In this document: piece after piece, positions 25,870 to 64,000 of the stretch
How the letters are laid out: each line of letters begins with the position of its first letter
Numbering within the stretch: position 1 is the first letter of the stretch
Assembly: GCA_963422365.1 (NCBI GenBank)
Contig: OY729426.1
Span: forward strand, 2,400,001-2,464,000
DNA: 64,000 nt
Direction: 5' to 3'
From: Nitrospirales bacterium
GTDB lineage: Bacteria > Nitrospirota > Nitrospiria > Nitrospirales > UBA8639
Program-made: the position numbers and the translations under genes
The notes under the pieces: generated by a model
Told to the model about the DNA's origin: nothing
The model's input: only the letters and a program-made list of their open reading frames with translations
The model's database searches: none

Positions 25870-25909
25870 AAAAAAGCCCCGTTCCACACTTATGGAACGG
25901 GGCTTTTTT
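25870..25909. terminator. Bidirectional rho-independent terminator
   Basis: A6-GCCCCGTTCCA-loop-TGGAACGGGGC-T6 between convergent genes. Confidence 0.9.
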
Positions 25910-25943
25910 GTCATCCACATTCAAAAGACTGAGGATCGACCGT

Positions 25944-38639: not shown

Positions 38640-38747
38640 GGGATTAACTTAGCATGAAAAGCGAAGAGGGAAGGCATGATGCGTAAAGAAATTTGTTGAA
38701 CCTTACGCCCCATGTCACTGTGTTCGGGATAACGCTTAAAGAGCGCG

Positions 38748-40232: not shown

Positions 40233-40265
40233 CTTCGCACGACTATGCTTGGCAAGAAATGGGCC

Positions 40266-42091: not shown

Positions 42092-42147
42092 GAGCTTGAC
42101 GTTATCCTTTTTTCCTTAGTTATGACATCCATTGAGACCCAAATGAG

Positions 42148-42738
42148 CTAGCCGTGACCCACGGCTGCACGAAAACGTTTTGTCATATCAGGGGGATCGA
42201 GGGCCACTCGATCGGCATCTTCAATCTGCTCGTTGACTTTAATCAGCAAAAAATTCGGGCCCTCGCTGTTCAGCATGTCTTTAAATTCATAGACAATATC
42301 CTCTCGTTCCCAAACCCGTTCGACAGTGGCGTAGCCGGCAGCCTTGGCTACGTGGTCCAGCCGAACGAACCGCGAATAGGAAGGCTGATTGCCGGTTGTC
42401 CCGTACACCTCGTTATCAAAGACCACATGAGTCAGGTTTTTCGGGTGTAATGCTCCGATAGTGGCCAATGTACCCATCCCCATGAGCACGTTCCCATCAC
42501 CATCGAACACGACGACTGGCTGTTCCGGTTTGGCCAAAGCAAGACCCAATCCAATTGAGGCAGCGACCCCCATCGACCCAATCATATAAAAATTGCCTGC
42601 CCGGTCCTGGATTTTTTGGGCTTCCCGTGAGGGGAACCCATTACAAATGATCACAGGTTGGTCAGACAGAACCTCAAAGAGCGCTTGAATCGCCTGGGCT
42701 CTGCTCTGCATCACGCCTTCTTCAGGTCGCAAACTCAC
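42148..42738 (-). CDS. ThDP decarboxylase beta subunit (ComE/phosphonopyruvate decarboxylase C-half)
   Basis: NFYMIGSMG, DGDGNVLM, DNEVYGTTGNQ. Confidence 0.88.
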   Translation of the reverse strand: MSLRPEEGVMQSRAQAIQALFEVLSDQPVIICNGFPSREAQKIQDRAGNFYMIGSMGVAASIGLGLALAKPEQPVVVFDGDGNVLMGMGTLATIGALHPKNLTHVVFDNEVYGTTGNQPSYSRFVRLDHVAKAAGYATVERVWEREDIVYEFKDMLNSEGPNFLLIKVNEQIEDADRVALDPPDMTKRFRAAVGHG

Positions 42739-42754
42739 TGACTCTCGCCCTTTC

Positions 42755-43258
42755 TTAAGGTTGGATGGTTTTCACCACACCCTTTTTCAAAAACAACGCA
42801 ACAGGGATTCGTTGCTCCATAAAGGTTTGCGCGGTCCATTGAAGATCATCCGCCAGGGTTTCCTGGGATAACGTTCGATGAGGAATCCGAATCGTCTCCA
42901 TCAACTGCGGCATGGTTTGCCCCATCACCACGTGTTCCGGGGCATCTTTCCCTTCAAAACCTCTCCAAGAAATAATCAGCAAGCAAGGGATCCTGTAGAT
43001 CAAATGAAGTGACATCAGCACATTCAAGGCATTCCCCAGCCCTGAATTCTGCATAAGAACGACAGGGATTTTTCCACCCAAAAACGCCCCTGCGGCCATG
43101 GCAACCGCCTCATCTTCACGCACCGACGGTGTATAGAGCCGGCGTTCACTTAACACTTCAATGATCCCGCCTAAAATCGTATCTGGCACACCGGTAAAAA
43201 AATCAAATCCAATATCCCTGAGTGCTTTCACAAAATCATCACTGTCGATCACGGCCAT
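42755..43258 (-). CDS. ThDP decarboxylase alpha subunit (ComD/phosphonopyruvate decarboxylase N-half)
   Basis: FFTGVPD, REDEAVA, MQNSGLGN, WRG....DAPEH. Confidence 0.88.
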   Translation of the reverse strand: MAVIDSDDFVKALRDIGFDFFTGVPDTILGGIIEVLSERRLYTPSVREDEAVAMAAGAFLGGKIPVVLMQNSGLGNALNVLMSLHLIYRIPCLLIISWRGFEGKDAPEHVVMGQTMPQLMETIRIPHRTLSQETLADDLQWTAQTFMEQRIPVALFLKKGVVKTIQP

Positions 43259-43560
43259 GACATCGTTCCTGAATGTGTTTAAAAAACATGCCTTCCTGGA
43301 AAAAGAATGTCTTTCCAAAAGTAGAGGGATTGGGGAAGCAAGAAGATCCACTCCGTGTCAAAACAAAAAACGGCACGGAATCATCTCTTTCTCCTAGCGA
43401 AAGAGATTATAACGAAGGGGTCGCATGCTTCTCAACAAACAGAACTGATTTCTTTTGAAACCGCCTCTCACAATTGCGGAGATTTGGTCCAGCAATGTAC
43501 ACTCTCAGGCGTTACGCACAGAGTGTTGAGAGATAACCCGTTACAAGGAGCGTGGAGTGT

Positions 43561-46274: not shown

Positions 46275-46703
46275 TCACGAGGCCGCATAGACAATCACTC
46301 CATACCGCGTTGCTTTACCAATGGCTATCCACAACAAGGCCTGAAGCCAATGAAGGCGGAGCCACCCACCGACCAAACACAGCGAATCCCCCACGACAGG
46401 CACCCAAGACAAGATCAAGGCTGGGCTCCCCCATTGCCGCACCCATTGAAGAGGTCGGTGATACTTGGGTTGAGTGAAATGGTTGGCCGGATACCACCAA
46501 CCGAAAAAACATCCGACGCCCCACAGGCTCATCCCGCCCAACGTATTCCCTGCCGAGGCAACGCCCAAAAGGATCCATGGATCATACTCATCCTGGACGG
46601 CCAAGATCGCCAACACGGCCTCAGATCCACCAGGGAGAAGAGTCGAAGCAAGAAAGGCACTCAGAAACAAGACCCACAGGCCTGAACCGTCAATCGTCGT
46701 CAC
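46275..46703 (-). CDS. YqaA/DedA-family membrane protein
   Basis: FLASTLLPGGSE, GNTLGG, SWVPVVGD, GKATRY. Confidence 0.9.
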   Translation of the reverse strand: MTTIDGSGLWVLFLSAFLASTLLPGGSEAVLAILAVQDEYDPWILLGVASAGNTLGGMSLWGVGCFFGWWYPANHFTQPKYHRPLQWVRQWGSPALILSWVPVVGDSLCLVGGWLRLHWLQALLWIAIGKATRYGVIVYAAS

Positions 46704-47057
46704 ACCCTGTCATCATAGGATTGTGCAAAAGCCTGTGGATGGCAAGAGAGTCAGGGTGAGTGCCCGTTCATTGCGCCAACAAACCCGGCACCAGGACGAG
46801 GATCTCGCCATCGTCACAAGACCTCGCTACACGCTCCACCAGCCTGGGAGTGCGCCTTGGCTTCTTGAAGACTTTGGAGAATCATTCGAGACATCCCAGC
46901 GCACGAGTAGTGTCAATACAACCTAAAACAAGCCTTTTTCGATCCTGAAAATATCCGGATCCTTGGTATTTTCAATATAGGAGAGCCATAGTGAAGCAAC
47001 CCGGTCCTGCGATTCGTCATTCTCGTCTCCTTCTCCCTCTGCAGCAGGCACCTTTCT
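46595..47057. repeat. Direct repeat copy A (matches 63538..64000)
   Basis: Near-identical 463 bp at offset 16,943. Confidence 0.95.
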
Positions 47058-47621
47058 ACTGATAAGTTGCAGCAGCACCATTCGTTCCCGTTCGTCGGTT
47101 GCGCGAAAAACGACAAAAACGCTGTCGTCAAGGCGCGTGTTTATCAACGTCCTATCAGGAGCAAAGCCTAATGCACTGAAGTATTTTCGAATGACGTTGG
47201 CGGTCGTTACCAACGCTTGTGGGTCCGGATCCTCGGTCACGGGCAATCCCCACAAAATATTAATCTGAATCAGTTTTTCTTGCTTGTAACCGTGAATATA
47301 AACGACGCGAGCCGGTCCGCTGCCAGGGAAGAGGCCCGTCACAGTCGCCACCAGACTGGAAGTCCTGTCTTCGTCATTCGGCTGCACCACGATATCTTCT
47401 TGCCCAAGCTGAAAATCGCGTTGTATGGCCTCCAGAGTTTTCGACTGCGACATCCCGAAGAGAGCCGAACGAAACCCCGTTATTTGGGGACCGACGGCTT
47501 CTTTGATAGTCGTATTCTCTAGCGCCGCAAAACTCTCCGCATCAACGCATAAAATAGGCACTCCAGCCAAGACAGCAAGGGCAGCGACAATAAACGCAGA
47601 GGTCCTAACCGTATCCATCAT
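46923..47621 (-). CDS. Exported accessory protein of the TPS cassette, unknown function
   Basis: Signal peptide; GFRSALFGMS motif; 18 bp downstream of tpsA. Confidence 0.8.
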   Translation of the reverse strand: MMDTVRTSAFIVAALAVLAGVPILCVDAESFAALENTTIKEAVGPQITGFRSALFGMSQSKTLEAIQRDFQLGQEDIVVQPNDEDRTSSLVATVTGLFPGSGPARVVYIHGYKQEKLIQINILWGLPVTEDPDPQALVTTANVIRKYFSALGFAPDRTLINTRLDDSVFVVFRATDERERMVLLQLISRKVPAAEGEGDENDESQDRVASLWLSYIENTKDPDIFRIEKGLF

Positions 47622-47639
47622 AACCTGATTTCCCCCTAA

Positions 47640-50600
47640 CTATCGCTTATAGTGGTCTTCATCATTCCCACCATGCGTATTCATCATGGCATCCGTTCCG
47701 AGGTGCCTCCACACGTCTCGCATGCCACCGGGCAACGTATCGTAGATCGACTCCATTCCGGTTTGCGGTTTCAACAACGCAAATGGCATCTCAAAGACAT
47801 TGACTGGATACGAACGATCCATTGCACCCATAACAGAAGCCCTCAATATCGGGGAGAACGGCAGAAAAACGACATCGCCTGGTGCCCCTCCCCAGCGCCA
47901 TGTTGTATTCGGAAGCGGCAAAGCAGCCAGTTCTGCATATTGTCGTATCTCTGGTCCGATGCCGAGACTGGTGAAGTCATTCAATTTGTACATGCCTGGG
48001 ACCTTGTTGCGGATTATAGTCTTACTGGCAGCACCCTGTCCGGCTTCACCGCCAACCGTACCCTTGATATCTACACTTTTTGCCTCAATCGTCAAAGAGT
48101 CAACTTCCACGGTCACGCCAATATGATTACTACTCTTTAACGTAACATCTTTCGCAATGATCCTTCCCTTGATATCTTTCGTGCTGACGTTGACAAAGGT
48201 ATCGGAATAAAGGGTGCTGAATCCGAAATCACTTGTTCCGGTCCCCGCAAGCTGTTGGAAAGAAGTCACTCTCATCGAAGTGCCTACTGTGACGTCATGG
48301 GCCTTGGTGATCGTCATCGCCCCCAGTTTGGCAGTGGAGCCGACATCTCCCTCGAAATGTATAGTCCCGGTATCCGCGTCCAGGCTCAGCGCATACCCGC
48401 CGTCGATCGTCGACGTGAACCGGATGTCGCCGTCCGTGCCGTCAGCGTTGGCGTCACTGTTGACCGTCACGGCCCCGGCTAACGTCACCGGGCCGGTGAA
48501 GGTCACGTGGCCGTCGTCACTGCGGTACGCCCCGGCCAGCGTGAGGCCCGTGGTGCCCGTCACATCCATGTCGCCCGTCGCCGTCACTGCAGCCAGCGCC
48601 ACCGCGCCACCCGTCACCGTGAGGCTCGTTACCGCGGTCGTGCCACCCACCGCCCCGACCAGCGTGATCGCGCCGGTATCCGCGTCCAGGCTCAACGCCT
48701 GCCCCCCGTCAATGGTCGACGTGAACCGGATGGCGCCAGCCGTGCTGTCAGCGTTGGCGTCACTGTTGACCGTCACGGCCCCGGCTAACGTCACCGGGCC
48801 GGTGAAGGTCACGTTACCATCGTCACTGCGGTACACCCCCGCCAGCGTGAGGCCCGTGGTGCCCGTCACATCCATGTCGCCCGTCGCCGTCACCGCAGCC
48901 AGCGCCACCGCGCCACCCGCCACCGTGAGGCTCGCCACCGCGGTGGTGCCACCCACCGCCCCGACCAGCGTGATCGCGCCGGTATCCGCATCCAGCACCA
49001 GCGCCTGCCCGCCGTCAATGGTCGACGTGAACCGGATGGCCCCGTCCGTGCCGTCGCCGTTGGCGTCACTGTTGACCGTCACGGCCCCGGCTAACGTCAC
49101 CGGGCCGGTGAAGGTCACGTCGCCGTCGTTACTGCGGTACGCCCCGGCCAGCGTGAGGCCCGTGCCCGTCACATCAATGTCGCCCGTCGCCGTCACCGCA
49201 GCCAGCGCCACCGCGCCACCCCTCACCGTGAGGCTCGTTACCTTTACCGCCCCGGCCAGCGTGAGGCCCGCGATCCCCCTCACATCAACAGCCCCCGTCG
49301 CCGTCACCGCAGCCAGCAACACCGCGCCACCCGCCACCGTGAGGCTCGCCACCGGGGTGGTGCCACCCACCGCCCCGGCCAGCGTGATCGCGCCGGTATC
49401 CGCATCCAGCACCAGCGCCTGCCCGCCGTCAATGGTCGACGTGAACTCAATGGCCCCGTCCGTGCCGTCGCCGTTGGCGTCACTGTTGACCGTCACGTCC
49501 CCGGCTAACGTCACCGGGCCGGTGAAGATCATGTTACCGTCGTCACTGCGGTACACCCCGGCCAGGGTGAGGCCCGTCCCCGTCACATCAATGTCGCCCG
49601 TCGCCGTCACCGCAGCCAACGCCACCGCGCCACCCGCCACCGTGAGGCTCGCCACCGCGGTGGTGCCACCCACCGCCCCGGCCAGCGTGATCGCGCCGGT
49701 ATCCGCGTCCAGCGTCAGCGCATACCCCCCGTCGATCGTCGACGTGAACTCAATGTCGCCGGCTGTGCCGTCGCCGTCGGCGTCACTGTTGACCGTCACG
49801 TCCCCGGCTAACGTCACCGGGCCGGTGAAGGTAATAGTGCCGTCGTCACTGCTGTACTCCCCAGCCAGCGTGATGCCCGTCGTAGCCGTCACCACCATGT
49901 TGCCCGTACCGGCTTCACCGCCAACCGTACCCTTGATATCTACACTTTTTGCCTCAATCGTCAAAGAGTCAACTTCCACGGTCACGCCAATATGATTACT
50001 ACTCTTTAACGTAACATCTTTCGCAATGATCCTTCCCTTGATATCTTTCGTGCTGACGTTGACAAAGGTATCGGAATAAAGGGTGCTGAATCCGAAATCA
50101 CTTGTTCCGGTCCCCGCAAGCTGTTGGAAAGAAGTCACTCTCATCGAAGTGCCTACTGTGACGTCATGGGCCTTGGTGATCGTCATCGCCCCCAGTTTGG
50201 CAGTGGAGCCGACATCTCCCTCGAAATGTATAGTCCCGGTATCCGCGTCCAGGCTCAGCGCATACCCCCCGTCGATCGTCGACGTGAACCGGATGTCGCC
50301 GTCCGTGCCGTCAGCGTTGGCGTCACTGTTGACCGTCACGGCCCCGGCTAACGTCACCGGGCCGGTGAAGGTCACGTTACCATCGTCACTGCGGTACGCC
50401 CCCGCCAGCGTGAGGCCCGTGCCCGTCACATCAATGTCGCCCGTCGCCGTCACTGCGGCCAGCGCCACCGCGCCACCCGTCACCGTGAGGCTCGTTACCG
50501 CGGTGGTGCCACCCACCGCCCCGGCCAATGTGATCGCGCCGGTATCCGCATCCAGGCTCAGCGCCTGCCCCCCGTCGATGGTCGACGTGAACTCAATGGC

Positions 50601-53600
50601 GCCAGCCGTGCCGTCGCCGTTGGCGTCACTATTGACCGTCACGGCCCCGGCTAACGTCACCGGGCCGGTGAAGGTCACGTCGCCATCGTCACTGCGGTAC
50701 GCCCCGGCCAGCGTGAGGCCCGTGCCCGTCACATCCATGTCGCCCGTCGCCGTCACCGCAGCCAGCGCCACCGCGCCACCCGTCACCGTGAGGCTCGCCA
50801 CCGCGGTGGTGCCACCCACCGCCCCGACCAGCTGGATCGCGCCGGTATCCGCGTCCAGGCTCAGCGCCTGCCCCCCGTCGATGGTCGACGTGAACCGGAT
50901 GGCGCCGGCCGTGCCGTCAGCGTTGGCGTCACTGTTGACCGTCACGGCCCCGGCTAACGTCACCGGGCCGGTGAAGGTCACGTTACCATCGTCACTGCGG
51001 TACACCCCCGCCAGCGTGAGGCCCGTGGTGCCCGTCACCGCCATGTCGCCCGTCGCCGTCACCGCAGCCAGCGCCACCGCGCCACCCCTCACCGTGAGGC
51101 TCGCCACCGGGGTCGTGCCACCCACCGCCCCGGCCAATGTGATCGCGCCGGTATCCGCATCCAGGCCAAGCGCATACCCCCCGTCGATCGTCGACGTGAA
51201 CTCAATGTCGCCGTCCGTGCCGTCAGTGTTGGCGTCACTGTTGACCCACACGAAGTCGGCTAACGTCACCGGGCCGGTGAAGGTCACGTGGCCGTCGTCA
51301 CTGCGGTACGCCCCCGCCAGCGTGAGGCCCGTGCCCGTCACATCAATGTCGCCCGTCGCCGTCACCGCGGGCAGCGCCACCACCGCACCCGAGGTCGTCA
51401 CCGTGAGGCTCGCCACCGCGGTGGTGCCACCCACCGCCCCGGCCAGCGTGATTGCACCGGTATCCGCGTCCAGCGTCAGCGCATACCCCCCGTCGATCGT
51501 CGACGTAAACTCAATGCCGCCGTCCGTGCCGTCAGCGTTGGCGTCACTGTCGACCGTCACAGCCCCGGCTAACGTCACCGGGCCGGTGAAGGTCACGTTA
51601 CCATCGTCACTGCGGTACACCCCCGCCAGCGTGAGGCCCGTGCCCGTCACCGCCACGGCCCCCGTCGCCGTCACCCCAACCAGCGCCACCGCGCCACCCG
51701 TCACCGTGAGGCTCGTTACCGCGGTCGTGCCACCCACCGCCCCGACCAGCGTGATCGCGCCGGTATCCGCGTCCAACTCCAGCACCTGCCCGCCGTCGAT
51801 GGTCGACGTGAACTCAATGTCGCCGCCCGTGCCGTCAGCGTCGGCGTCACTGTTGACCCACACGAAGTTGGCTAACGTCACCGGGCCGGTGAAGGTCACG
51901 TTACCGTCATTCGAGAGCACGTTTCCCGCCAGCGTGAGGCCCGTCGCCGTCACATCAATGTCGCCCGTCGCCGTCACCGCAGCCAGCGCCACCGCGCCAC
52001 CCCTCACCGTGAGGCTCGCCACCGGGGTCGTGCCACCCACCGCCCCAGCCAGCGTGATCGCGCCGGTATCCGCGTCCAGGCTCAACGCATACCCCCCGTC
52101 AATCGTCGACGTGAACTCAATGGCCCCAGCCGTGCCGTCGCCGTCGGCGTCACTGTTGACCGTCACGGCCCCGGCTAACGTCACCGGGCCGGTGAAGGTG
52201 ATGTGGCCGTCGCTCGAGAGCACGTTTCCCGCCAGCGTGAGGCCTGTGCCCCTCACCGCCACAGCCCCCGTCGCCGTCACCGCGGGCAGCGCCACCGCGC
52301 CCGAGGTCATCACCGTGAGGCTCGCCACCGCGGTGCTGCCACCCACCACCCCGGCCAGCCGGATCGCGCCGGTATCCGCGTCCAGGCTCAGCGCATACCC
52401 CCCGTCAATCGTCGACGTGAACTCAATGGCGCCGTCCGTGCCGTCGTAGTCGGCGTCACTGTTGACCGTCACGGCCCCGGCTAACGTCACCGGGCCGGTG
52501 AAGGTGATGTGGCCGTCGCTCGAGAGCACGTTTCCCGCCAGCGTGAGGCCCATGCCCGTCACCGCCACAGCCCCCGTCGCCGTCACCGCAGCCAGCGCCA
52601 CCGCGCCCGAGGTCGTCACCGTGAGGCTCGCCACCGCGGTGCTGCCACCCACCGCCCCGACCAGCCGGATCGCGCCGGTATCCGCGTCCAGGCTCAGCGC
52701 ATACCCCCCGTCAATCGTCGACGTGAACCGGATGACCCCGTCCGTGCCGTCGTCGTTGGCGTCACTGTTGACCGTCACGGCCCCGGCTAACGTCACCGGG
52801 CCGGTGAAGATCACGTTACCGTCATTCGAGAGCACGTTTCCCGCCAGCGTGAGGCCCGTCCCCGTCACCGCCACGGCCCCCGTCACCGTCACCGCAGCCA
52901 GCGACACCGCGCCACCCGTCACCGTGAGGCTCGTCACCGTGGTGGTGCCACCCACCGCCCCGGCCAGCGTGATCGTGCCGCTGCCAGCGGCCAGCGTCAG
53001 CGCATACCCCCCGTCGATGGTCGACGTGAACCGGATGTCGCCGTCCGTGCTGTCGTCGTTGGCGTCACTGTTGACCGTCACGGCCCCGGCTAACGTCACC
53101 GGGCCGGTGAAGATCACGTGGCCGTCGCTCGAGAGCACGTTTCCCGCCAGCGTGAGGCCTGTCGCCGTCACCGCTATGTTGCCCGTCGCCGTCACCGCAG
53201 CCAGCGACACCGCGCCACCCGTCACCGTGAGGCTCGTTACCGCGGTGGCGCCACCCACCGCCCCGACCAGCGTGATCGCGCCGGTATCCGCGTCCAGGCT
53301 CAGCGCCTGCCCCCCGTCAATCGTCGACGTGAACCGGATGACCCCGTCCGTGCCGTCGTCGTCGGCGTCACTGTTGACCGTCACAGCCCCGGCTAACGTC
53401 ACCGGGCCGGTGAAGGTCACGTTACCATCGTCACTGCGGTACGCCCCCGCCAGCGTGATCCTCGTGGTGCCCGTCACCGCTATGTTCCCCGTCGCCGTCA
53501 CCGCGGCCAGCGACACCGCGCCACCCGTCACCGTGAGGCTCGTTACCTCTACCACCCCGGCCAGCGTGAGGCCCGTGCCCGTCACCGCCACAGCCCCCGT

Positions 53601-56600
53601 CGCCCTCACCGCAGCCAGCGACACCGCGCCACCCGCCACCGTGAGGCTCGTTACCGCGGTGGTGCCACCCACCGCCCCGACCAGCGTGATCGCGCCGGTA
53701 TCCGCGTCCAGCGTCAGCGCATACCCCCCGTCAATCGTCGACGTGAACCGGATGACCCCGTCCGTGCCGTCGTCGTTGGCGTCACTGTCCACTCGCACGG
53801 CCCCGGCTAACGTCACCGGGCCGGTGAAGATCACGTTACCATCGTCACTGCGGTACACCCCGGCCAGCGTGAGGCTCGTGGTGCCCGTCACCGCTATGTT
53901 CCCCGTCGCCGTCACCGCGGCCAGCGACACCGCGCCACCCGTCACCGTGAGGCTCGTTACCTCTACCGCCCCGGCCAGCGTGAGGCCCGTGCCCGTCACC
54001 GCCACAGCCCCCGTCGCCGTCACCGCAGCCAGCGACACCGCGCCACCCGCCACCGTGAGGCTCGTTACCGCGGTGGTGCCACCCACCGCCCCGACCAGCG
54101 TGATCGCGCCGGTATCCGCGTCCAGCGTCAGCGCATACCCCCCGTCAATCGTCGACGTGAACCGGATGACCCCGGCCGTGCCGTCGTCGTTGGCGTCACT
54201 GTCCACTCGCACGGCCCCGGCTAACGTCACCGGGCCGGTGAAGATCATGTTACCATCGTCACTCCGGTACACCCCCGCCAGCGTGAGGCCCGTGCCCCTC
54301 ACATCAATGTCGCCCGTCGCCCTCACCCCGGCCAGCGCCACCGCGCCCGCGGTCACCACCGTGAGGCTCGTTACCGCGGTGGTGCCACCCACCGCCCCGA
54401 CCAGCGTGATCGTGCCGGTATCCGCATCCAGCACCAGCGCCTGCCCCCCGTCAATCGTCGACGTGAACCGGATGGCCCCGTCCGTGCTGTCGCCGTTGGC
54501 GTCACTGTCCACTCGCACGGCCCCGGCTAACGTCACCGGGCCGGTGAAGGTCATGTTACCATCGTCACTCCGGTACGCCCCCGCCAGCGTGAGGCCCGTC
54601 CCCGTCACCGCCACGGCCCCCGTCGCCCTCACCCCGGCCAGCGCCACCGCTCCCCTGGTCGCCACCGTGAGGCTCGCCACCGCGGTCCTGCCACCCACCG
54701 CCCCGACCAGCGTGATCGCGCCGGTATCTGCATCCAGGCTCAGCGCATACCCCCCGTCAATGGTCGACGTGAACCGGATGGCCCCGTCCGTGCCGTCGTC
54801 GTTGGCGTCACTGTTGACCGTCACAGCCCCGGCTAACGTCACCGGGCCGGTGAAGGTCACGTGGCCGTCATTCGAGAGCACGTTTCCCGCCAGCGTGATG
54901 CCCGTGCCCGTCACCGCCACGGCCCCCGTCGCCGTCACCGCGGCCAGCGACACCGCTCTCCTGGTCGCCACCGTCAGGCTCGTTACCTCTACCGCCCCGG
55001 CCAGCGTGATGCCCGCGATCCCCCTCACATCAACAGCCCCCGTCGCCGTCACCGCAGCCAGCGACACCGCGCCACCCGTCACCGTGAGGCTCGCTACCGG
55101 GGTCGTGCCACCCACCGCCCCGACCAGCGTGATCGCGTCGGTATCCGCGTCCAGGCTCAGCGCATACCCCCCGTCAATCGTCGACGTGAACCGGACCCCG
55201 TCCGTACTGTCGTCGTCGGCGTCACTGTTGACCGTCACGGCCCCGGCTAACGTCACCGGGCCGGTGAAGGTCACCTTGCCGTCGTCACTCCGGTACGCCC
55301 CCGCCAGCCTGAGGCCCGTGCCCGTCACCGCCACGTCGCCCGTCGCCGTCACCGCAGCCAGCGACACCGCGCCACTGGTCACCACCGTGAGGCTCGCCAC
55401 CGCGGTCCTGCCACCCACCGCCCCAACCAGCGTGATCGCGCCGGTATCTGCATCCAGGCTCAGCGCCTGCCCCCCGTCAATCGTCGACGTGAACCGGATG
55501 GCGCCGTCCGTGCCGTCGTCGTCGGCGTCACTGTTGACCGTCACGGCCCCGGCTAACGTCACCGGGCCGGTGAAGATCATGTTACCATCGTCACTGCGGT
55601 ACGCCCCCGCCAGCCTGAGGCCCGTGCCCGTCACCGCCACGGCCCCCGTCGCCGTCACCGCAGCCAGCGACACCGCGCCACCCGTCACCGTGAGGCTCGC
55701 CACCGCGGTGCTGCCACCCACCGCCCCGACCAGCCGGATCGCGCCGGTATCCGCGTCCAGCGTCAGCGCCTGCCCCCCGTTAATCGTCGACGTGAACCGG
55801 ATGACCCCGTCCGTGCCGTCGTCGTCGGCGTCGCTGTTGACCGTCACAGCCCCGGTTAACGTCACCGGGCCGGTGAAGGTGATGTTGCCGTCGCTCGAGA
55901 GTACGTTCCCCGCCAGCGTGATGCCCCTAGCCGTCACATCAATGTCGCCCGTCGCCGTCACCGCGAGCAGCGCCACCGCGCCCGAGGTCGTCACCGTGAG
56001 GCTCGCCACCGGGGTGCTGCCACCCACCCCGGCCAGCGTGATCGTGCCGGTATCCGCATCCAGCACCAGCGCCTGCCCCCCGTCGATGGTCGACGTGAAC
56101 CGGATGGCCCCGTCCGTACTGTCGTCGTCAGCGTCACTGTCCACCGTCACGGCCCCGGTTAACGTCACCGGGCCGGTGAAGGTCATGTTACCATCGTCAC
56201 TCCGGTACTCCCCCGCCAGCGTGAGGCCCGTCCCCGTCACCGCCACGGCCCCCGTCGCCGTCACCGCAGCCAGCGACACCGCGCCACCCGCCACCGTCAG
56301 GCTCGCTACCGCGGTGGTGCCACCCACCGCCCCGACCAGCGTGATCGCGCCGGTATCCGCGTCCAGGCTCAACGCCTGCCCGCCGTTGATGGTCGACGTG
56401 AACTCAATGGCCCCGTCCGTACTGTCGTCGTTGGCGTCACTGTCCACCGTCACGGCCCCGGTTAACGTCACCGGGCCGGTGAAGGTGACGTGGCCGTCAT
56501 CACTGCGGTACGCCCCTGCCAGCCTGATGCCCGTGCCCGTCACATCAATGTCGCCCGTCGCCGTCACCGCAGCCAGCGACACCGCGCCACCCGTCACCGT

Positions 56601-59600
56601 CAGGCTCGCCACCGCGGTCGTGCCACCCACCGCCCCGGCCAGGGTGATCGCGCCGGTATCCGCATCCAGGCTCAGCGCATACCCGCCGTCAATGGTCGAC
56701 GTGAACGCAATGGCCCCGTCCGTGCCGGCGCCGTCGGCGTCACTGTTGACCCGCACGCCCCTGGCTAACGTCACCGGGCCGGTGAAGGTGATGTTACCGT
56801 CGCTCGAGAACACGTTTCCTGCCAGCGTGAGGCCCGTGCCCGTCACCGCCATGTTGCCCGTCGCCAACACCGTGGCCAGCGACACCGCGCCACCCGTCAC
56901 CGTCAGGCTCGTTACCGCGGTGGCGCCACCTACCGTCCCGGCCAGCGTGATCGCGCCGGTATCCGCATCCAGGCTCAACGCATACCCGCCGTCAATGGTC
57001 GACGTGAACCGGATGGCGCCGTCCGTGCCGTCGTCGTCGGCGTCACTGTTGACCGTCACGGCCCCGGCTAACGTCACCGGGCCGGTGAAGGTGATGTGGC
57101 CGTCATTCGAGAGCACGTTTCCCGCCAGCGTGAGGCCCCTAGCCGTCACCTCAATGTCGCCCGTCGCCGTCACCGCAGCCAGCGACACCGCGCCACCCCT
57201 CACCTTCAGGCTCGTCACCCTGGTGGTACCACCCACCGTCCCGGCCAGCGTGATCGCGCCGGTCTCCGCGTCCAGGCCCAGCACCTGCCCGCCGTCAATG
57301 GTCGACGTGAACTCAATGGCGCCGGCCGTGTCGTCGTTGTCGGCGTTACTGTCCACCCACACGAAGTTGGCTAACGTCACCGGGCCGGTGAAGGTGATGT
57401 TACCGTCGCTCGTTGCAATGTCTGCGGCCAATGTGATCCTCGTGGTGCCCGTCACCGCCACGGCCCCCGTCGCCGTCACCGCAGCCAGCTCCACCGCGCC
57501 ACCCGTCACCGTCAGGCTCGCCACCGCGGTGGTGCCACCCACCGCCCCGACCAGCCGGATCGCGCCGGTATCCGCGTCCAGGCTCAACGCCTGCCCGCCG
57601 TTGATGGTCGACGTGAACCGGATGGCGCCGTCCGTGCCGCTGTTGTTTTGGTCACTGTTGACCGTCACGTCCCCGGCTAACGTCACCGGGCCGGTGAAGG
57701 TGATGTTGCCGTCGTTACTGCGGTACGCCCCCGCCAGCGTGATACCCCTAGCCGTCACCGCCACGGCCCCCGTCGCCGTCACCGCGGGCAGCACCACCAC
57801 CGCGCCACTCCTCACCTTCAGGCTCGCCACCGGGGTCCTGCCACCCACCGCCCCGGCCAGCCGGATCACGCCGGTATCCGCGTCCAGGCTCAGCGCATAC
57901 CCGCCGTCGATGGTCGACGTGAACGCAATGGCCCCGTCCGTGCTGTCATCGTCGGCGTCACTGTCCACCCGCACAGCCCCGGCTAACGTCACCGGGCCGG
58001 TGAAGGTGATGTTACCGTCGTTACTCTGGTACTGCCCGTCCAGCCGGATCGTGCCGCCCGTCACCGCCACGGCCCCCGTCGCCTTCACCGCAGCCAGCGA
58101 CACCGTGCCACTGGTCACCACCGTGAGGCTCTTCACCATGGTCCCGCCACCCACCGCCCTGACCAGCCGGATCGCGCCGGTATCCGCGTCCAGCGTCAGC
58201 GCATACCAGCCGTTGATGTTCAAACTAAACGCAATGTTGCCGTCCCTGCCGTCGTTGTCGGCGTCACTGTTGACCGTCACCGCCCCGGTTAACACCACCG
58301 AGCCGGTGAAGGTGATATTGCCGTCGTCACTCCGGTACGCCCCGGCCAGCCGGATCGTGCCGCCCGTCGTCACCGCCACGGCCCCCGTCGCCCTCACCGC
58401 GGCCAGCGACACCGAGCCAGCCGTCACCGTCAGGCTCGCCACCGGGGTCCTGCCACCCACCGCCGCAGCCAGCCGGATCACGCCGGTATCCGCGTCCAGC
58501 GTCAGCGCATACCCGCCGTTGATGGTCGACGCGAACCGGATGGCGCCGTCCGTGCCGTCGTTGTCGGCGTCACTGTCCACCGTCACGTCCCCGGTTAACG
58601 CCACCGTGCCGACGGCGAAGGTAATATTGCCGTCGTCACTCCGGTACGCCCCGGCCAGCCGGCCCGTGCCGCCCTTCACATCAATCTTGCCCGTCGCCCT
58701 CACCCCGGCCATCAACACCTCGACACCCGACACCGTGAGGCTCGCCACCGGGGTGGTGCCACCCACCGCCCCGCCCAGTGTGGTCGTGCCGCTGCCCGAG
58801 TCCACCTCCAGCGCCTGCCCGCCGTCGATGGTCGACGTGAACTGAATGTCGCCGTCCGTGCTGTCGTCGTCGGCGTCACTGTTGACCGTCACGGCCCAGC
58901 CTAACGTCACCGGGCCGGTGAAGGTCACGTGGCCGTCGTCACTGCGGTACGCCCCCGCCAGCCGGATCGTGCCGCCCGTCACATGAATGTTGCCCGTCGC
59001 CGTCACCGCAGCCAGCGACACCGCGCCCGAGGTCGTCACCGTGAAGCTCGTCACCGGGGTCCTGCCACCCACCGCCCCGCCCAGCGTGATCGCGCCGCTG
59101 CCCGCGTCCAGATCCAGATCCTGCCCGCTACTCGTCTTCTTGCTGTTGATGGTCAACGTGAACCGGATGGCGCCGGCCGTGCCGTCGGCGTTGGCGTCAC
59201 TGTCCACCCGCACGGCCCCGGCTAACGTCACCGGGCCGGTGAAGGTCACGTCGCCGTCGTTACTCTGGTATTCCCCCACCAGCCGGATGATCGTGCCGCC
59301 CGTCACATCAATGTTACCCGTCGCCGTCACCGCCCGCAGCGACACCGCGCCACCCGTCACCGTGAGGCTCGCCACCGCGGTGGTGCCACCCACCGCCCCG
59401 ACCAGCTGGATCGCGCCGGTATCCGCGTCCAGGCTCAGCGCCTGCCCCCCGTCGATGGTCGACGTGAACCGGATGGCGCCGGCCGTGCCGTCAGCGTTGG
59501 CGTCACTGTTGACCGTCACGTCCCCGGTTAACGTCACCGGGCCGGTGAAGGTGATGTTACCGTCGTTCGTTCGAATGTCTGCGGCCAGCGTGATTGTGCC

Positions 59601-61619
59601 GCTGGACCTCACAACAAGTGATGCACTGCCGCCAATGCTCAGCGATTCGCCTACTGTGATAGCGGACGCCACAATCGAACTGCCGGCCTGGCCGGTACCG
59701 GTCGGGCCTGTGGTCGCTGTGCCGATGATGATGGACCCGGAAGTGACAAACCTCCCTATTTCCGCATTGCTGAGATTGCCAGCCCCAGCAGAAATTGTCA
59801 TCAGGACGGATTGGGACGGCGCCACATGTATGTCTCCCGTTCCGGCGTCTATGCTACTGGCGAGGTCAATCGCGAACCCGGCGCCAATCAGCGTGACGTC
59901 GCCGTTGTTGGAGGTAATGGAACCACTGCTGCCAATCGTCAGTGTTCCGATGCCGTCGTTATTACCTGACCTCGGCGAGTCCGCTTCAAATATAAAATTG
60001 TGTGCGCCGTTGGTGCCGGTAATGGCAGCATTGATTGTCAGATGACGCCCTGCCTGCAGGCTCAGGGTGCTGCTTGAACTACCGCTCCTGTCGATAGGAG
60101 AACTGACTGTCATGTCCCGCTGCGCTTGAAGGGTGACATCTCCATCGATGGCTTCGAATGCCACAGGCTGAATGTTATAATCGTTGCTATCGGAGCCGAA
60201 ACTGATCTCGCCGTCGGCGGACACCTCATTGTTATTGGTTCCATCCCCATCGGAAATGGTGATATCCCTCGGGTCCAGGAGCAACTCGCCGGCTGAGCCG
60301 CCTGGCGCACGCAGATCGACCGCGGCTGCGGCAAATTGCAGATGACGCTTGCCCGATACTTCCGCAAAACCGCCATCGCCGGAATGGGTGCCACCGCGAG
60401 CGGAAATGCTCCCCAAAAAGCGAGTTACCCGTTCCGACCAAACGATGACTTTGCCCCCGTTGCCGGTGCCGGTGGCGTCGGCCCGGATTGTCACGTCGCC
60501 GCCAACCGTGGCGTATTCGGCGTTGCGCTCCGGTCCCTTGCCCTGGAAATTGCCGCCAATCAGGGTCGTGCCGCCGCCAGAATGCCCGGACGCATCGATC
60601 TTGGCCTGCTCAACGACGCCGACTTTCTCGCCCAGCACTTTCACGCTGCCACCGGTCTCACCTCGCCCCTTGCCGGAAGCGTCCAGCTTGCCGGCGACCC
60701 GGACGATGCCCTCGCCATTGCCCAGCAGTTGAATGTGGCCGTTGCGCATTCCCACTGAGCGCGCTTCGACGATGCCGTCCATGTTGATGACGCGGTCAAC
60801 CACGTCCTTCGCCGCACTGGCTGCCAGCCACACGGCTCCGCCGTCGGCATTGATCGTGCCGCTGTTGTCAACCAGCGCTGCCAGAGGGGCTCCATCGGGG
60901 GCCGTCAGGCGCTCGGCCACGCGGTCATCAACCCTGAGCCGGATCAAGCTGTCGCCGTGGAGATCAAACGTGAAGGCATTGCCCGAAGCCAGCGCAACAC
61001 GACCGAGCCGGGCGCGAATCACCCCGCTGTTCTCGACGCCGGGTGCCACCAGCGCTACCAAGCCGCCTTCGGCTGCGGTGATCCTGCCGCGGTTGACGAC
61101 CGTCCCGCCAGGATTATGGTTGATAGCAAAGTTGAAACGACCGGCCATGAAGTCTTCATTGCGGATATCGATCGTTGTCGCGACCAGGCCGGCGACGTCC
61201 ACCACGGCGGTTTTGCCGAACAGGATGCCATTCGGGTTGAGCAGCATGACCCGGCCGTTGGCGGTCAGCTTCCCGAGAAGATTGGAGTACGAATCGCCCC
61301 TGACCCGGTTCAGCGTCATCGAAGAAGCGGACGGCTGCCGAAAGTGGGTATGCTCGTCCACGTCAATCGAGAACGAACGCCAATCGATGACGGCGTTGGC
61401 GGAGCGCTGGTTGATATCAAGACGATTGGGCGTGGACTGTACGATGTCAGCCCCGCCGGCAATCACCTTGCCGTCCTTCGGCATTGCCTGCACCAGCCCG
61501 CCGGCCGTCAGCACCCCGCAAGACAGGGCCAACAGCAGTACGAGAAATGTCAATCGCCGACCAGAGATTCCATGATGGGCCTCGCTGATTCGCTCCGCAA
61601 CATTAGGGAAAGCCGTCAT
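47640..61619 (-). CDS. Giant filamentous-haemagglutinin-like TpsA exoprotein (4659 aa)
   Basis: Signal peptide; TPS domain (IDWRSFSI, LNRV, LNPNGILFG); GGFAEVSG, LLLDP; about 35 ~101-aa repeats. Confidence 0.93.
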   Translation of the reverse strand: MTAFPNVAERISEAHHGISGRRLTFLVLLLALSCGVLTAGGLVQAMPKDGKVIAGGADIVQSTPNRLDINQRSANAVIDWRSFSIDVDEHTHFRQPSASSMTLNRVRGDSYSNLLGKLTANGRVMLLNPNGILFGKTAVVDVAGLVATTIDIRNEDFMAGRFNFAINHNPGGTVVNRGRITAAEGGLVALVAPGVENSGVIRARLGRVALASGNAFTFDLHGDSLIRLRVDDRVAERLTAPDGAPLAALVDNSGTINADGGAVWLAASAAKDVVDRVINMDGIVEARSVGMRNGHIQLLGNGEGIVRVAGKLDASGKGRGETGGSVKVLGEKVGVVEQAKIDASGHSGGGTTLIGGNFQGKGPERNAEYATVGGDVTIRADATGTGNGGKVIVWSERVTRFLGSISARGGTHSGDGGFAEVSGKRHLQFAAAAVDLRAPGGSAGELLLDPRDITISDGDGTNNNEVSADGEISFGSDSNDYNIQPVAFEAIDGDVTLQAQRDMTVSSPIDRSGSSSSTLSLQAGRHLTINAAITGTNGAHNFIFEADSPRSGNNDGIGTLTIGSSGSITSNNGDVTLIGAGFAIDLASSIDAGTGDIHVAPSQSVLMTISAGAGNLSNAEIGRFVTSGSIIIGTATTGPTGTGQAGSSIVASAITVGESLSIGGSASLVVRSSGTITLAADIRTNDGNITFTGPVTLTGDVTVNSDANADGTAGAIRFTSTIDGGQALSLDADTGAIQLVGAVGGTTAVASLTVTGGAVSLRAVTATGNIDVTGGTIIRLVGEYQSNDGDVTFTGPVTLAGAVRVDSDANADGTAGAIRFTLTINSKKTSSGQDLDLDAGSGAITLGGAVGGRTPVTSFTVTTSGAVSLAAVTATGNIHVTGGTIRLAGAYRSDDGHVTFTGPVTLGWAVTVNSDADDDSTDGDIQFTSTIDGGQALEVDSGSGTTTLGGAVGGTTPVASLTVSGVEVLMAGVRATGKIDVKGGTGRLAGAYRSDDGNITFAVGTVALTGDVTVDSDADNDGTDGAIRFASTINGGYALTLDADTGVIRLAAAVGGRTPVASLTVTAGSVSLAAVRATGAVAVTTGGTIRLAGAYRSDDGNITFTGSVVLTGAVTVNSDADNDGRDGNIAFSLNINGWYALTLDADTGAIRLVRAVGGGTMVKSLTVVTSGTVSLAAVKATGAVAVTGGTIRLDGQYQSNDGNITFTGPVTLAGAVRVDSDADDDSTDGAIAFTSTIDGGYALSLDADTGVIRLAGAVGGRTPVASLKVRSGAVVVLPAVTATGAVAVTARGITLAGAYRSNDGNITFTGPVTLAGDVTVNSDQNNSGTDGAIRFTSTINGGQALSLDADTGAIRLVGAVGGTTAVASLTVTGGAVELAAVTATGAVAVTGTTRITLAADIATSDGNITFTGPVTLANFVWVDSNADNDDTAGAIEFTSTIDGGQVLGLDAETGAITLAGTVGGTTRVTSLKVRGGAVSLAAVTATGDIEVTARGLTLAGNVLSNDGHITFTGPVTLAGAVTVNSDADDDGTDGAIRFTSTIDGGYALSLDADTGAITLAGTVGGATAVTSLTVTGGAVSLATVLATGNMAVTGTGLTLAGNVFSSDGNITFTGPVTLARGVRVNSDADGAGTDGAIAFTSTIDGGYALSLDADTGAITLAGAVGGTTAVASLTVTGGAVSLAAVTATGDIDVTGTGIRLAGAYRSDDGHVTFTGPVTLTGAVTVDSDANDDSTDGAIEFTSTINGGQALSLDADTGAITLVGAVGGTTAVASLTVAGGAVSLAAVTATGAVAVTGTGLTLAGEYRSDDGNMTFTGPVTLTGAVTVDSDADDDSTDGAIRFTSTIDGGQALVLDADTGTITLAGVGGSTPVASLTVTTSGAVALLAVTATGDIDVTARGITLAGNVLSSDGNITFTGPVTLTGAVTVNSDADDDGTDGVIRFTSTINGGQALTLDADTGAIRLVGAVGGSTAVASLTVTGGAVSLAAVTATGAVAVTGTGLRLAGAYRSDDGNMIFTGPVTLAGAVTVNSDADDDGTDGAIRFTSTIDGGQALSLDADTGAITLVGAVGGRTAVASLTVVTSGAVSLAAVTATGDVAVTGTGLRLAGAYRSDDGKVTFTGPVTLAGAVTVNSDADDDSTDGVRFTSTIDGGYALSLDADTDAITLVGAVGGTTPVASLTVTGGAVSLAAVTATGAVDVRGIAGITLAGAVEVTSLTVATRRAVSLAAVTATGAVAVTGTGITLAGNVLSNDGHVTFTGPVTLAGAVTVNSDANDDGTDGAIRFTSTIDGGYALSLDADTGAITLVGAVGGRTAVASLTVATRGAVALAGVRATGAVAVTGTGLTLAGAYRSDDGNMTFTGPVTLAGAVRVDSDANGDSTDGAIRFTSTIDGGQALVLDADTGTITLVGAVGGTTAVTSLTVVTAGAVALAGVRATGDIDVRGTGLTLAGVYRSDDGNMIFTGPVTLAGAVRVDSDANDDGTAGVIRFTSTIDGGYALTLDADTGAITLVGAVGGTTAVTSLTVAGGAVSLAAVTATGAVAVTGTGLTLAGAVEVTSLTVTGGAVSLAAVTATGNIAVTGTTSLTLAGVYRSDDGNVIFTGPVTLAGAVRVDSDANDDGTDGVIRFTSTIDGGYALTLDADTGAITLVGAVGGTTAVTSLTVAGGAVSLAAVRATGAVAVTGTGLTLAGVVEVTSLTVTGGAVSLAAVTATGNIAVTGTTRITLAGAYRSDDGNVTFTGPVTLAGAVTVNSDADDDGTDGVIRFTSTIDGGQALSLDADTGAITLVGAVGGATAVTSLTVTGGAVSLAAVTATGNIAVTATGLTLAGNVLSSDGHVIFTGPVTLAGAVTVNSDANDDSTDGDIRFTSTIDGGYALTLAAGSGTITLAGAVGGTTTVTSLTVTGGAVSLAAVTVTGAVAVTGTGLTLAGNVLSNDGNVIFTGPVTLAGAVTVNSDANDDGTDGVIRFTSTIDGGYALSLDADTGAIRLVGAVGGSTAVASLTVTTSGAVALAAVTATGAVAVTGMGLTLAGNVLSSDGHITFTGPVTLAGAVTVNSDADYDGTDGAIEFTSTIDGGYALSLDADTGAIRLAGVVGGSTAVASLTVMTSGAVALPAVTATGAVAVRGTGLTLAGNVLSSDGHITFTGPVTLAGAVTVNSDADGDGTAGAIEFTSTIDGGYALSLDADTGAITLAGAVGGTTPVASLTVRGGAVALAAVTATGDIDVTATGLTLAGNVLSNDGNVTFTGPVTLANFVWVNSDADADGTGGDIEFTSTIDGGQVLELDADTGAITLVGAVGGTTAVTSLTVTGGAVALVGVTATGAVAVTGTGLTLAGVYRSDDGNVTFTGPVTLAGAVTVDSDANADGTDGGIEFTSTIDGGYALTLDADTGAITLAGAVGGTTAVASLTVTTSGAVVALPAVTATGDIDVTGTGLTLAGAYRSDDGHVTFTGPVTLADFVWVNSDANTDGTDGDIEFTSTIDGGYALGLDADTGAITLAGAVGGTTPVASLTVRGGAVALAAVTATGDMAVTGTTGLTLAGVYRSDDGNVTFTGPVTLAGAVTVNSDANADGTAGAIRFTSTIDGGQALSLDADTGAIQLVGAVGGTTAVASLTVTGGAVALAAVTATGDMDVTGTGLTLAGAYRSDDGDVTFTGPVTLAGAVTVNSDANGDGTAGAIEFTSTIDGGQALSLDADTGAITLAGAVGGTTAVTSLTVTGGAVALAAVTATGDIDVTGTGLTLAGAYRSDDGNVTFTGPVTLAGAVTVNSDANADGTDGDIRFTSTIDGGYALSLDADTGTIHFEGDVGSTAKLGAMTITKAHDVTVGTSMRVTSFQQLAGTGTSDFGFSTLYSDTFVNVSTKDIKGRIIAKDVTLKSSNHIGVTVEVDSLTIEAKSVDIKGTVGGEAGTGNMVVTATTGITLAGEYSSDDGTITFTGPVTLAGDVTVNSDADGDGTAGDIEFTSTIDGGYALTLDADTGAITLAGAVGGTTAVASLTVAGGAVALAAVTATGDIDVTGTGLTLAGVYRSDDGNMIFTGPVTLAGDVTVNSDANGDGTDGAIEFTSTIDGGQALVLDADTGAITLAGAVGGTTPVASLTVAGGAVLLAAVTATGAVDVRGIAGLTLAGAVKVTSLTVRGGAVALAAVTATGDIDVTGTGLTLAGAYRSNDGDVTFTGPVTLAGAVTVNSDANGDGTDGAIRFTSTIDGGQALVLDADTGAITLVGAVGGTTAVASLTVAGGAVALAAVTATGDMDVTGTTGLTLAGVYRSDDGNVTFTGPVTLAGAVTVNSDANADSTAGAIRFTSTIDGGQALSLDADTGAITLVGAVGGTTAVTSLTVTGGAVALAAVTATGDMDVTGTTGLTLAGAYRSDDGHVTFTGPVTLAGAVTVNSDANADGTDGDIRFTSTIDGGYALSLDADTGTIHFEGDVGSTAKLGAMTITKAHDVTVGTSMRVTSFQQLAGTGTSDFGFSTLYSDTFVNVSTKDIKGRIIAKDVTLKSSNHIGVTVEVDSLTIEAKSVDIKGTVGGEAGQGAASKTIIRNKVPGMYKLNDFTSLGIGPEIRQYAELAALPLPNTTWRWGGAPGDVVFLPFSPILRASVMGAMDRSYPVNVFEMPFALLKPQTGMESIYDTLPGGMRDVWRHLGTDAMMNTHGGNDEDHYKR
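48370..59580 (-). repeat. Intragenic tandem array of about 35 x ~303-bp units
   Basis: 35 DGx(I/V/M)xF(TGPVTL) starts counted in the translation; GC-rich recurring AACGTCACCGGGCCGGTGAAG. Confidence 0.92.
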
Positions 61620-61639
61620 AGACCAATCTCCCTCTTCAG

Positions 61640-63395
<1,756 letters not shown>

Positions 63396-63453
63396 ACCCA
63401 GTTGTGTCTTATTGGAAGGCTTCCGCCCGTGTACACCATGTCCACCTTACAAT

Positions 63454-63487
63454 AGTTTAGGGGGGGGGGGTACTCAGGATATGTCAA
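63454..63487 (-). promoter_or_regulatory. tpsB promoter TTGACA-(11 nt + C11)-TAAACT with a homopolymer in the spacer
   Basis: Perfect -35 at 63482..63487; -10-like TAAACT at 63454..63459; 22-nt spacer. Confidence 0.65.
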
Positions 63488-63502
63488 GTGTTCACTCATA
63501 AT

Positions 63503-63646
63503 TCAAACCCGCGCGCTTGTACGTCTCCCCCCATATGGGACGGCCAAGATCGCCAACACGGCCTCAGATCCACCAGGGAGAAGAGTCGAAGCAAGAAAGG
63601 CACTCAGAAACAAGACCCACAGGCCTGAACCGTCAATCGTCGTCAC
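63503..63646 (-). pseudogene. Truncated duplicate of the yqaA 5' end (36 codons, then unrelated tail VPYGGRRTSARV*)
   Basis: Identical to 46595..46703 up to the breakpoint at 63538. Confidence 0.85.
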
Positions 63647-64000
63647 ACCCTGTCATCATAGGATTGTACAAAAGCCTGTGGATGACAAGAGAGTCAGGGT
63701 GAGTAGCCCGTTCATTGCGCCCAAAAAAAGGCACTAGGACGAGGATCTCGCCATCGTCACAGAACTCGCTAAACGCTCCACCAGCCTGGGAGTGCGCCTT
63801 GGCTTCTTGAAGACTTTTTGAGAATCATTCGAGACATCCCATCGCGCGAGTAGTGTCAATACAACCTAAAACAAGCCTTTTTCGATCCTGAAAATATCCG
63901 GATCCTTGGTATTTTCAATATAGGAGAGCCATAGTGAAACAACCCGGTCCTGCGATTCGTCATTCTCGTCTCCTTCTCCCTCTGCGGCAGGCACCTTTCT
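63538..64000. repeat. Direct repeat copy B (matches 46595..47057), runs off the window
   Basis: Near-identical, with several substitutions and indels in the intergenic part. Confidence 0.95.
63866..64000 (-). CDS. 3' end of a second copy of the TPS accessory gene (partial)
   Basis: Encodes ...LWLSYIENTKDPDIFRIEKGLF*, as in 46923..47621. Confidence 0.85.
   Translation of the reverse strand, partial: RKVPAAEGEGDENDESQDRVVSLWLSYIENTKDPDIFRIEKGLF

Follow-up and report, generated by a model that had tools for sequence, protein, structure and literature searches.

This study concerned a 64,000-nt stretch of the genome of a Nitrospirales bacterium of the UBA8639 lineage (the window; positions 2,400,001 to 2,464,000 of contig OY729426.1, assembly GCA_963422365.1), in which a first-pass annotation had noticed a repeated giant-adhesin cassette. 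Two complete cassettes were found in tandem, each consisting of tpsB, tpsA and an accessory gene, transcribed in that order. In the explanation that we favour, with moderate confidence, the cassettes are likely of proteobacterial origin, are predicted to export giant beta-helical adhesins by two-partner secretion (TPS), and are likely switched by slipped-strand frameshifting at a poly-C tract within tpsB.

Two tandem cassettes

The genome is a single contig of 2,495,695 bp with the window near its end, and coordinates follow window numbering, continued along the contig beyond 64000. The repeat reported earlier, of 46595-47057 at 63538-64000 (463 bp, offset 16,943), was reproduced with an identity of 96.1% over 465 columns. 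Whole-genome open reading frames (ORFs) revealed accessory 2, tpsA2 and tpsB2 past position 64000, and the second tpsA/tpsB pair that had been set beforehand as a check was thereby found (Table 1). The unit does start again, as had been proposed, but the second one measures ~21.5 kb, from the start of tpsB2 to 109 nt into yqaA, rather than 16.9 kb. A whole-genome search found no third copy; the supposed array of TPS cassettes is a tandem, but one of only two units. Each of the two copies was matched twice, giving four matches, because of an untrimmed terminal overlap of 58,333 bp: the last 58 kb of the contig repeats its first 58,333 bp, so that the locus was assembled twice (the non-redundant genome size is 2.44 Mb). 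Both assembled versions have the same cassette layout. Read along the minus strand, the order is tpsB2, tpsA2, accessory 2, spacer, 109 nt of yqaA (a gene name taken from the first-pass annotation), a 141-bp insert, tpsB1, tpsA1, accessory 1, spacer and intact yqaA. The ORFs and Pfam matches of the unit include no transposase or integrase, in agreement with the earlier description.

Table 1. Features of the duplicated locus, in window numbering.
Feature	Coordinates	Strand	Basis
yqaA-like VTT/DedA-type membrane protein gene, intact; host gene, downstream flank	46275..46703	-	Pfam VTT_dom E 5e-5, below cut-off; in 29/37 congeners
Spacer with decayed MOSC 3' end, copy 1	46704..46922	-	DNA alignment to G001, G008; tblastn remnant weak, E 1.1
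Accessory gene 1, 232 aa, hydrophobic signal-like N-terminus, predicted alpha/beta fold	46923..47621	-	ORF; AlphaFold2 (AF2) pLDDT 79
tpsA1, 4,659 aa	47640..61619	-	ORF; TPS domain; AF2 and structure comparison
tpsB1, POTRA_2 and ShlB barrel; assembled frame ends right after poly-C run	61640..63395	-	ORF, Pfam
Poly-C run in tpsB1 (G38 on + strand), codon ~36, just past signal-like sequence	63252..63289	-	Sequence
141-bp junction insert, possible copy 1 promoter	63397..63537	-	Sequence
Duplicated yqaA 5' 109 nt, truncated, end of unit 2	63538..63646	-	Alignment
MOSC 3' remnant, copy 2	63647..63865	-	tblastn E 1.8e-5; alignment to G001, G008
Accessory gene 2	63866-64564 (3' end in window to 64000)	-	ORF
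tpsA2, ~6,220 codons	64583-83258	-	ORFs, one frame break per assembled version
tpsB2	83279-85016	-	C20 run at 84891-84910, out of frame as assembled
MOSC 5' remnant	from ~85136	-	DNA alignment, tblastn

The terminal overlap (G000:C1:1-58333) corresponds to window position 37343 to the contig end, and anything in 37343-64000 is counted twice in the assembly. Its tail version carries many 1-bp deletions past window position ~85,400, which break a glmS-like gene and others, and the two versions also differ by a 26-nt indel at 37832-37857 and a 1-nt indel at 43831.

The two copies differ unevenly. The tpsB body differs at 1 of 1,632 nt, tpsA shows no difference over its first 2,011 nt, and 14 of 745 nt at the tpsA 3' end and 10 of 699 nt in the accessory gene differ. 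For the 26 of 35 tpsA1 repeat units that could be delimited by DNA pattern, the best tpsA2 match is only 78-93%, and tpsA2 holds internal exact repeats of up to 811 nt. Exact blocks of at least 150 nt common to both repeat arrays were not found, save for a 192-nt piece of a terminal module, and repeat swapping between the copies is therefore not evident. From this pattern we infer an older duplication, of which the 5' 3.7 kb block appears to have been recently homogenised while the repeats expanded within each gene, and this takes the place of the reshuffling of cassettes by recombination proposed earlier. The first-pass annotation had also placed the differences between copies in intergenic DNA, with nearly identical coding parts. 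In a gapped alignment of the 463-bp repeat the clustering is real: 46595-46922 has 17 columns that differ, all outside the 109-nt 5' piece of yqaA, and the accessory part (46923-47057, 135 nt) has 2. But the DNA concerned is a decayed MOSC gene remnant, which accounts for the clustering, and the repeat arrays do differ.

Insertion site and origin

The cassettes lie within a MOSC gene. At the insertion site, 27 of the 29 congener loci with yqaA have an intact MOSC gene (MOSC Pfam match on the G001 ORF), and here remnants of it flank the cassettes, as found by alignment to G001 and G008 and by tblastn, so that the insertion split the gene. The TPS region was found in none of 37 congeners, ShlB in none of 37, and TpsB in none of 24. 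The closest relatives of the accessory protein, 52-71% identical, are homologues in metagenome-assembled genomes (MAGs) of Rhodospirillales, other Alphaproteobacteria and Arenicellales; 8 of 10 of those genomes carry TpsB relatives (53-63% identical) and 6 of 10 carry relatives of the TPS region (66-70%). A quick unrooted tree of 83 rows groups the accessory protein with alpha- and gammaproteobacterial MAG proteins in one clade, with a Shimodaira-Hasegawa approximate likelihood ratio test (SH-aLRT) value of 99. These comparisons suggest that the cassette was likely acquired from proteobacteria. A metagenome scan gave no close tpsB relative, the best being 52%.

Copies within a genome cluster together in the tree, and amplification therefore recurs independently. 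The Arenicellales genome G059 has tpsB-(tpsA-accessory)x3 and a fourth tpsA-accessory pair, and G061 has two tpsA genes with one tpsB. The G059 locus is a better example of an array than that of the window; its segment G059:C1:3091422-3141570 comprises one tpsB and three tpsA-accessory units, with frames of 5,038, 8,020 and 1,217 aa and no long homopolymers. Some relatives of tpsB are interrupted, either split by ~2.2 kb of other DNA inside the gene (G063:C1:2715170-2718922) or by frame breaks (G055:C13:193037-194607 and G054:C99).

A flanking gene of the window encodes a protein 77% identical to one of Ca. Nitronereus thalassa and 80% identical to one of a Nitrospira sp. MAG. The lineage IVb Nitrospirales genus Ca. 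Nitrosymbion is described, in the available part of the source, as mostly sponge-associated (PMC11812461). Judged from its lineage, the bacterium studied here is probably a sponge symbiont.

Predicted products of the cassettes

TpsB has a POTRA domain (PF08479, E 1e-21) and a ShlB/FhaC barrel (PF03865, E 2.6e-21). The tpsA gene is co-oriented with tpsB and starts 20 nt downstream of it, and its product carries an N-terminal TPS domain at aa 57-303 (PF05860, E 2e-34; also TIGR01901). The 4,659 aa of TpsA1 include 35 repeats of ~101 aa, a ~110-aa module that occurs twice, and a C-terminal tail that is conserved, while the ~6,220 codons of TpsA2 specify ~50 repeats. An AF2 model of three repeats is a predicted beta-helix, with a mean predicted local distance difference test score (pLDDT) of 95.7; by VIA it compared to EtpA with Z 22.5 (root-mean-square deviation, rmsd, 2.7; 269 aligned) and to HMW1 with Z 20.2, and a Foldseek search with the same model gave no match at E<=0.001. 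Pfam matches of the repeats to SPP1_Dit and YiiD_C were discounted as summed noise, 0 stretches having passed. The barrel, the TPS domain and the predicted beta-helical passenger together place the pair in type Vb (two-partner) secretion, with secretion itself predicted from sequence and models.

The accessory protein matches no Pfam or NCBIfam family. Its own family has 68 homologues in the search and 787 representatives, and is likewise without a Pfam entry. The AF2 model (pLDDT 79) has a confident alpha/beta core, for which Foldseek gave no match at E<=0.001, the best VIA score was Z 7.8, and the Atlas neighbours were nameless; look-ups of protein clusters likewise gave no name. The weak fold matches, to YdcD (Z 7.8) and RhsI1 (Z 6.6, rmsd 4.8, 126 aligned), are both within the noise range, and nothing relevant was found in the literature on the YdcD 'double-wing'. 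In 13 of the 13 closest loci the accessory gene directly follows the C-terminal module or tail of tpsA. A Pfam scan of 84 of the 110 neighbouring ORFs from 36 loci, plus 2 others, gave SapC at 7 loci, HlyD at 2, CHASE2 at 2 and flavin reductase at 11, and 10 Azospirillum-type loci had repeat-like matches on the opposite strand. Genomic context thus ties the family to large secreted proteins, though not to these alone. For the accessory protein itself, the role of a periplasmic helper (chaperone or anchor), one for each TpsA, is the most likely, and this is the weakest step of the explanation; modelling the TpsA tail and the accessory protein as a complex gave a score of 0.01, which is evidence neither way.

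A poly-C tract in tpsB

That the cassettes contain homopolymer tracts, as the first-pass annotation held, was confirmed, since both tpsB genes carry a run of C 106 nt past the ATG, just after a signal-like sequence. The gene reads in frame when the tract length is 1 mod 3. As assembled, the tract of copy 1 is 38, or 41 with one A fewer at the other contig end, and that of copy 2 is 20; in all four assembled versions of tpsB the frame is lost, with a stop immediately past the run.

Two other samples point to a different length. Of the 19 sequencing runs listed, four were compared over 60000-64000: X1, X3 and X5 offered contigs, and represent 3 samples from 2 studies, one of which may be the source of the assembly, while raw reads of X12, sampled at ~1%, yielded 0 reads. 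The contigs of X1 and X3 are 19 nt shorter than the assembly across the tract (3,362 vs 3,381); provided that the entire difference falls within the run, the tract there has 19 C and the frame is open.

In 8 of 8 relatives no C/G run of at least 7 occurs near the 5' end of tpsB, and the candidate switch would therefore have been gained after horizontal transfer; among metagenome loci, 1 of 76 has a C/G run of at least 9. The six pure CCC codons in the tract are unlikely by codon usage alone (~7e-4).

Similar tracts occur elsewhere in the genome. The non-redundant sequence contains 9 G/C runs of at least 13, where 0.12 are expected, and no A/T runs of at least 10. All nine are C on the coding strand and lie in coding sequence, seven within the first 40 codons, with six out of frame and three in frame. 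They fall in the two tpsB genes, two FN3 proteins, an Ig-like protein, a GT2 glycosyltransferase, a UbiA protein, a sulfatase-domain protein and an MFS transporter. Of 37 congeners, 30 also have G/C runs of at least 13, with very many in G005, G048 and G052, a possible genus-wide contingency repertoire. The idea that such tracts stem from a loss of mismatch repair found no support, as MutS and MutL motifs are present in long open frames.

Three of these genes (G000:C1:891249, 1666590 and 1777135) encode large secreted FN3/Ig-like repeat proteins with a near-identical leader and a poly-C run near codon 29, which is in frame in one of them and out of frame in the other two; they form a candidate second switchable surface family. 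The GT2, UbiA-type, sulfatase-domain and MFS genes with poly-C (G000:C1:940703, 1396855, 1964137 and 1428451) are candidate envelope-modification contingency genes.

Proposed explanation and its alternatives

In the favoured explanation, the cassette would have been inserted once, into the MOSC gene, and the poly-C run would have arisen in this lineage before the duplication, or been copied across after it. The unit would then have been duplicated from the start of tpsB to 109 nt into yqaA, with the 141-bp insert at the seam, after which the repeat arrays would have drifted apart in sequence and in length, with gene conversion probably keeping the tpsB-TPS block identical. An out-of-frame tract would stop tpsB after ~40-50 codons. 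Both copies have the same TpsB protein and the same TPS domain, and switching of each cassette separately therefore needs a polar frameshift. On general principles, an out-of-frame tpsB would be polar; Rho is present in the genome, and with it a stretch of 1.6 kb of untranslated message would probably cause transcription to terminate, silencing tpsA and the accessory gene of that cassette. Polar switching would give cells with the long, the short, both or no adhesin. If there were no polarity, either TpsB could serve both TpsA proteins, and only the double-off state would matter.

Several points weigh against this explanation. The value of 19 C comes from length arithmetic, with no gap row inside the repeat in the alignment, and X1 and X3 each show one majority length, in frame and apparently in both copies, a result just as compatible with a fixed 'on' state. 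Contigs hide minority tract lengths, and do not give the length distribution within samples. Homopolymers are poorly resolved in long-read consensus: one tract was read as 38 and 41 at the two contig ends, and 1-bp indels are many near the contig end, so the 'off' states may be errors. The junction insert holds TTGACA-11 nt-C11-TAAACT (spacing 22), with C11 at 63460-63470, but this run occurs in copy 1 only and is unchanged in 3 of 3 runs. An adhesive role for TpsA is suggested by its predicted fold alone. None of 14 control genomes was positive for ShlB, so the sensitivity of the negative ShlB result among congeners is unproven, and the direction of transfer rests on congener absence and the split MOSC gene, the tree being unrooted. 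The accessory family is not exclusive to TPS loci, since TpsB or a TPS domain was present in the fetched flank of only 17 of 66 more distant loci, and in 11 Nitrospinota loci the neighbour is a flavin reductase instead. Of the earlier claim that each cassette is gated by homopolymer switches, the tracts in both tpsB genes and their frame arithmetic are upheld, as candidate switches; for the promoter-region C11 there is no support. A sigma-70 promoter scan did not call the TTGACA/TAAACT pair, and no source for the insert was found: it has no match elsewhere in the genome, and a weak 27-nt match in 1 of 37 congeners.

The alternative that survives best, although we give it only a minor share of the probability, is a constitutive adhesin pair, serving dosage or providing two lengths, in which the C run is a proline linker fixed at 19 and the out-of-frame lengths are assembly errors. 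Relatives do carry a short, Pro-containing linker at the tract position, the assembly is inconsistent at the tract, and X1 and X3 both gave 19, in frame. However, a proline linker needs no pure CCC codons, the run of copy 1 is about twice 19, and the long runs of the genome are selectively C on the coding strand of envelope-type genes; the X5 contigs, in the pieces shown, stop short of crossing the tract.

Decay of the cassettes in this strain, with both tpsB genes stuck out of frame and tpsA2 broken, is improbable. It would agree with the premature stop in all four assembled tpsB versions and with the frame break found in both assembled versions of tpsA2. The latter lie at different places (71848 and 78864), each version being open where the other is broken, and are therefore likely consensus errors, while tpsA1 is open over 14 kb and the in-frame 19 C was obtained from two other samples.

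Still less likely is a contact-dependent inhibition (CDI) system of the cdiB-cdiA-cdiI type, with the accessory gene specifying immunity, even though the gene order matches, each tpsA has one accessory gene, and RhsI1 and YdcD were among the weak fold matches mentioned above. TpsA1 lacks a VENN motif, and its last 260 aa have no Pfam match and no pretoxin or toxin domain. This C-terminal region is 96% identical between the copies and 43-59% identical across phyla, the accessory gene is conserved as well, and no orphan C-terminal cassettes were seen.

The duplication itself was recovered from the independent samples. A 217-nt contig (63351-63567) crosses the junction with 0 differences in all three contig-bearing runs, so that the sequence across position 63538, set beforehand as a second check, is spanned, and the earlier view of a real, aged duplication is upheld. 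In the same three runs, loose contig ends at 63396 and 63538 match the DNA upstream of tpsB2 and intact yqaA, and both alleles of the spacer (the 'intergenic' DNA) are present. In X3 the common tpsB contig has a depth of 128.6 against ~71 for the flanks, which fits two copies although depth is not strictly copy number, and the spacer alleles are at similar depths of 58.7 and 60.6. Misassembly of two strain haplotypes, for which the highly repetitive genes, the untrimmed overlap and the junction depth in X3 might be cited, can be dismissed given the identical junction contig in 3 samples from 2 studies and the allele and common-part depths in X3, with the same reservation about depth.

The X3 junction contig has a depth of 34.6, half that of the single-copy flanks, perhaps because a subpopulation retains a single, collapsed cassette or because words were lost at G11. 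X5 alone has extra loose ends at 62572, 62822 and 63884, inside tpsB and accessory 2, which represent either variant alleles or a related cassette of another organism.

Comparison with known systems

The closest parallel is with HMW1/HMW2 of Haemophilus influenzae, which the available parts of two sources describe as paralogous three-gene TPS adhesin loci with interchangeable transporters, divergent passengers, repeat-driven phase variation and gene conversion between loci (PMC13192263, PMC8262952); the two copies here are in tandem, not dispersed. The candidate switch differs, being a poly-C frameshift in tpsB and not, as in those accounts, a promoter heptamer: heptanucleotide promoter repeats are absent from both upstream sequences read, which have poly-C runs instead. 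The third gene here encodes a 232-aa, signal-bearing protein of a nameless family rather than the HMW1C glycosyltransferase. TpsA lacks the C-terminal cysteine anchor ascribed to the HMW proteins in the same excerpts, the single Cys of TpsA1 being residue 34, in the leader, and the passengers are of 4,659 and ~6,220 aa. On the favoured reading the locus would work like HMW1/HMW2, but it is outside that family, three of whose features it lacks.

EtpA-type TPS adhesins (PDB 8VBA) similarly have a TPS domain followed by a long, repetitive beta-helix, which in the present case is predicted. Identity to EtpA is 17% in the aligned part, TpsA is much longer, the accessory gene is a different one, and binding is here only predicted. 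A coding poly-C run in a type V secretion gene is known from Neisseria nalP and ausI/mspA, but these are autotransporters, at least in the part of the source available (PMC5472700), whereas here the run lies in the transporter gene tpsB, which precedes the gene for the passenger. In the literature found, as far as its accessible text extends, there was no case of a poly-C frameshift in a TpsB transporter (PMC6211672, PMC4202330 and PMC5472700 among it). The CDI systems share the gene order and the one small downstream gene per TpsA, but differ, according to the portions at hand, in that a VENN motif and toxin domain are lacking here and the C-terminus and its partner are conserved, not polymorphic (PMC6211672, PMC5472700).

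Other features of the window

A cluster at 37662-43351 includes LPG-synthase-like, CDP-alcohol phosphotransferase, NTP transferase, class-V aminotransferase and split TPP-enzyme genes (Pfam), and presumably resembles those for phosphonate or phosphonolipid synthesis. A 1,740-aa ORF at 17789-23011 has weak multicopper-oxidase domains and a LysM match, and is possibly two genes or a fusion. There is also a 52-bp near-perfect inverted repeat at 25864-25915, and an internal direct similarity of 69% between 390-805 and 5923-6338.

Biological meaning

Phase-variable adhesin pairs are textbook features of mucosal pathogens. In the accessible text of the open-licence literature, no TPS switch or phase-variable adhesin pair was described in relatives of Nitrospira or in sponge symbionts, and each ingredient of the present locus is, singly, already known. 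Tentatively, and with less confidence than in the explanation given above, a wider picture can be drawn, in which a three-gene giant-adhesin module moves among unrelated animal-associated bacteria (Rhodospirillales, Arenicellales and Nitrospirales), with independent amplification in every genome. The nameless periplasmic product of its third gene would then be a new part dedicated to two-partner secretion, with one for each TpsA. In this nitrifier symbiont, the module might have been wired into genome-wide poly-C contingency through a polar transporter frameshift, so that a probable sponge symbiont would vary its surface in the style of a pathogen. The accessory family, with its many representatives, may be a so far uncharacterised type of helper for giant secreted proteins. 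Should the switch prove real, the locus would provide a read-assayable marker for attachment versus release of the symbiont, or for its evasion of host cells and phages.

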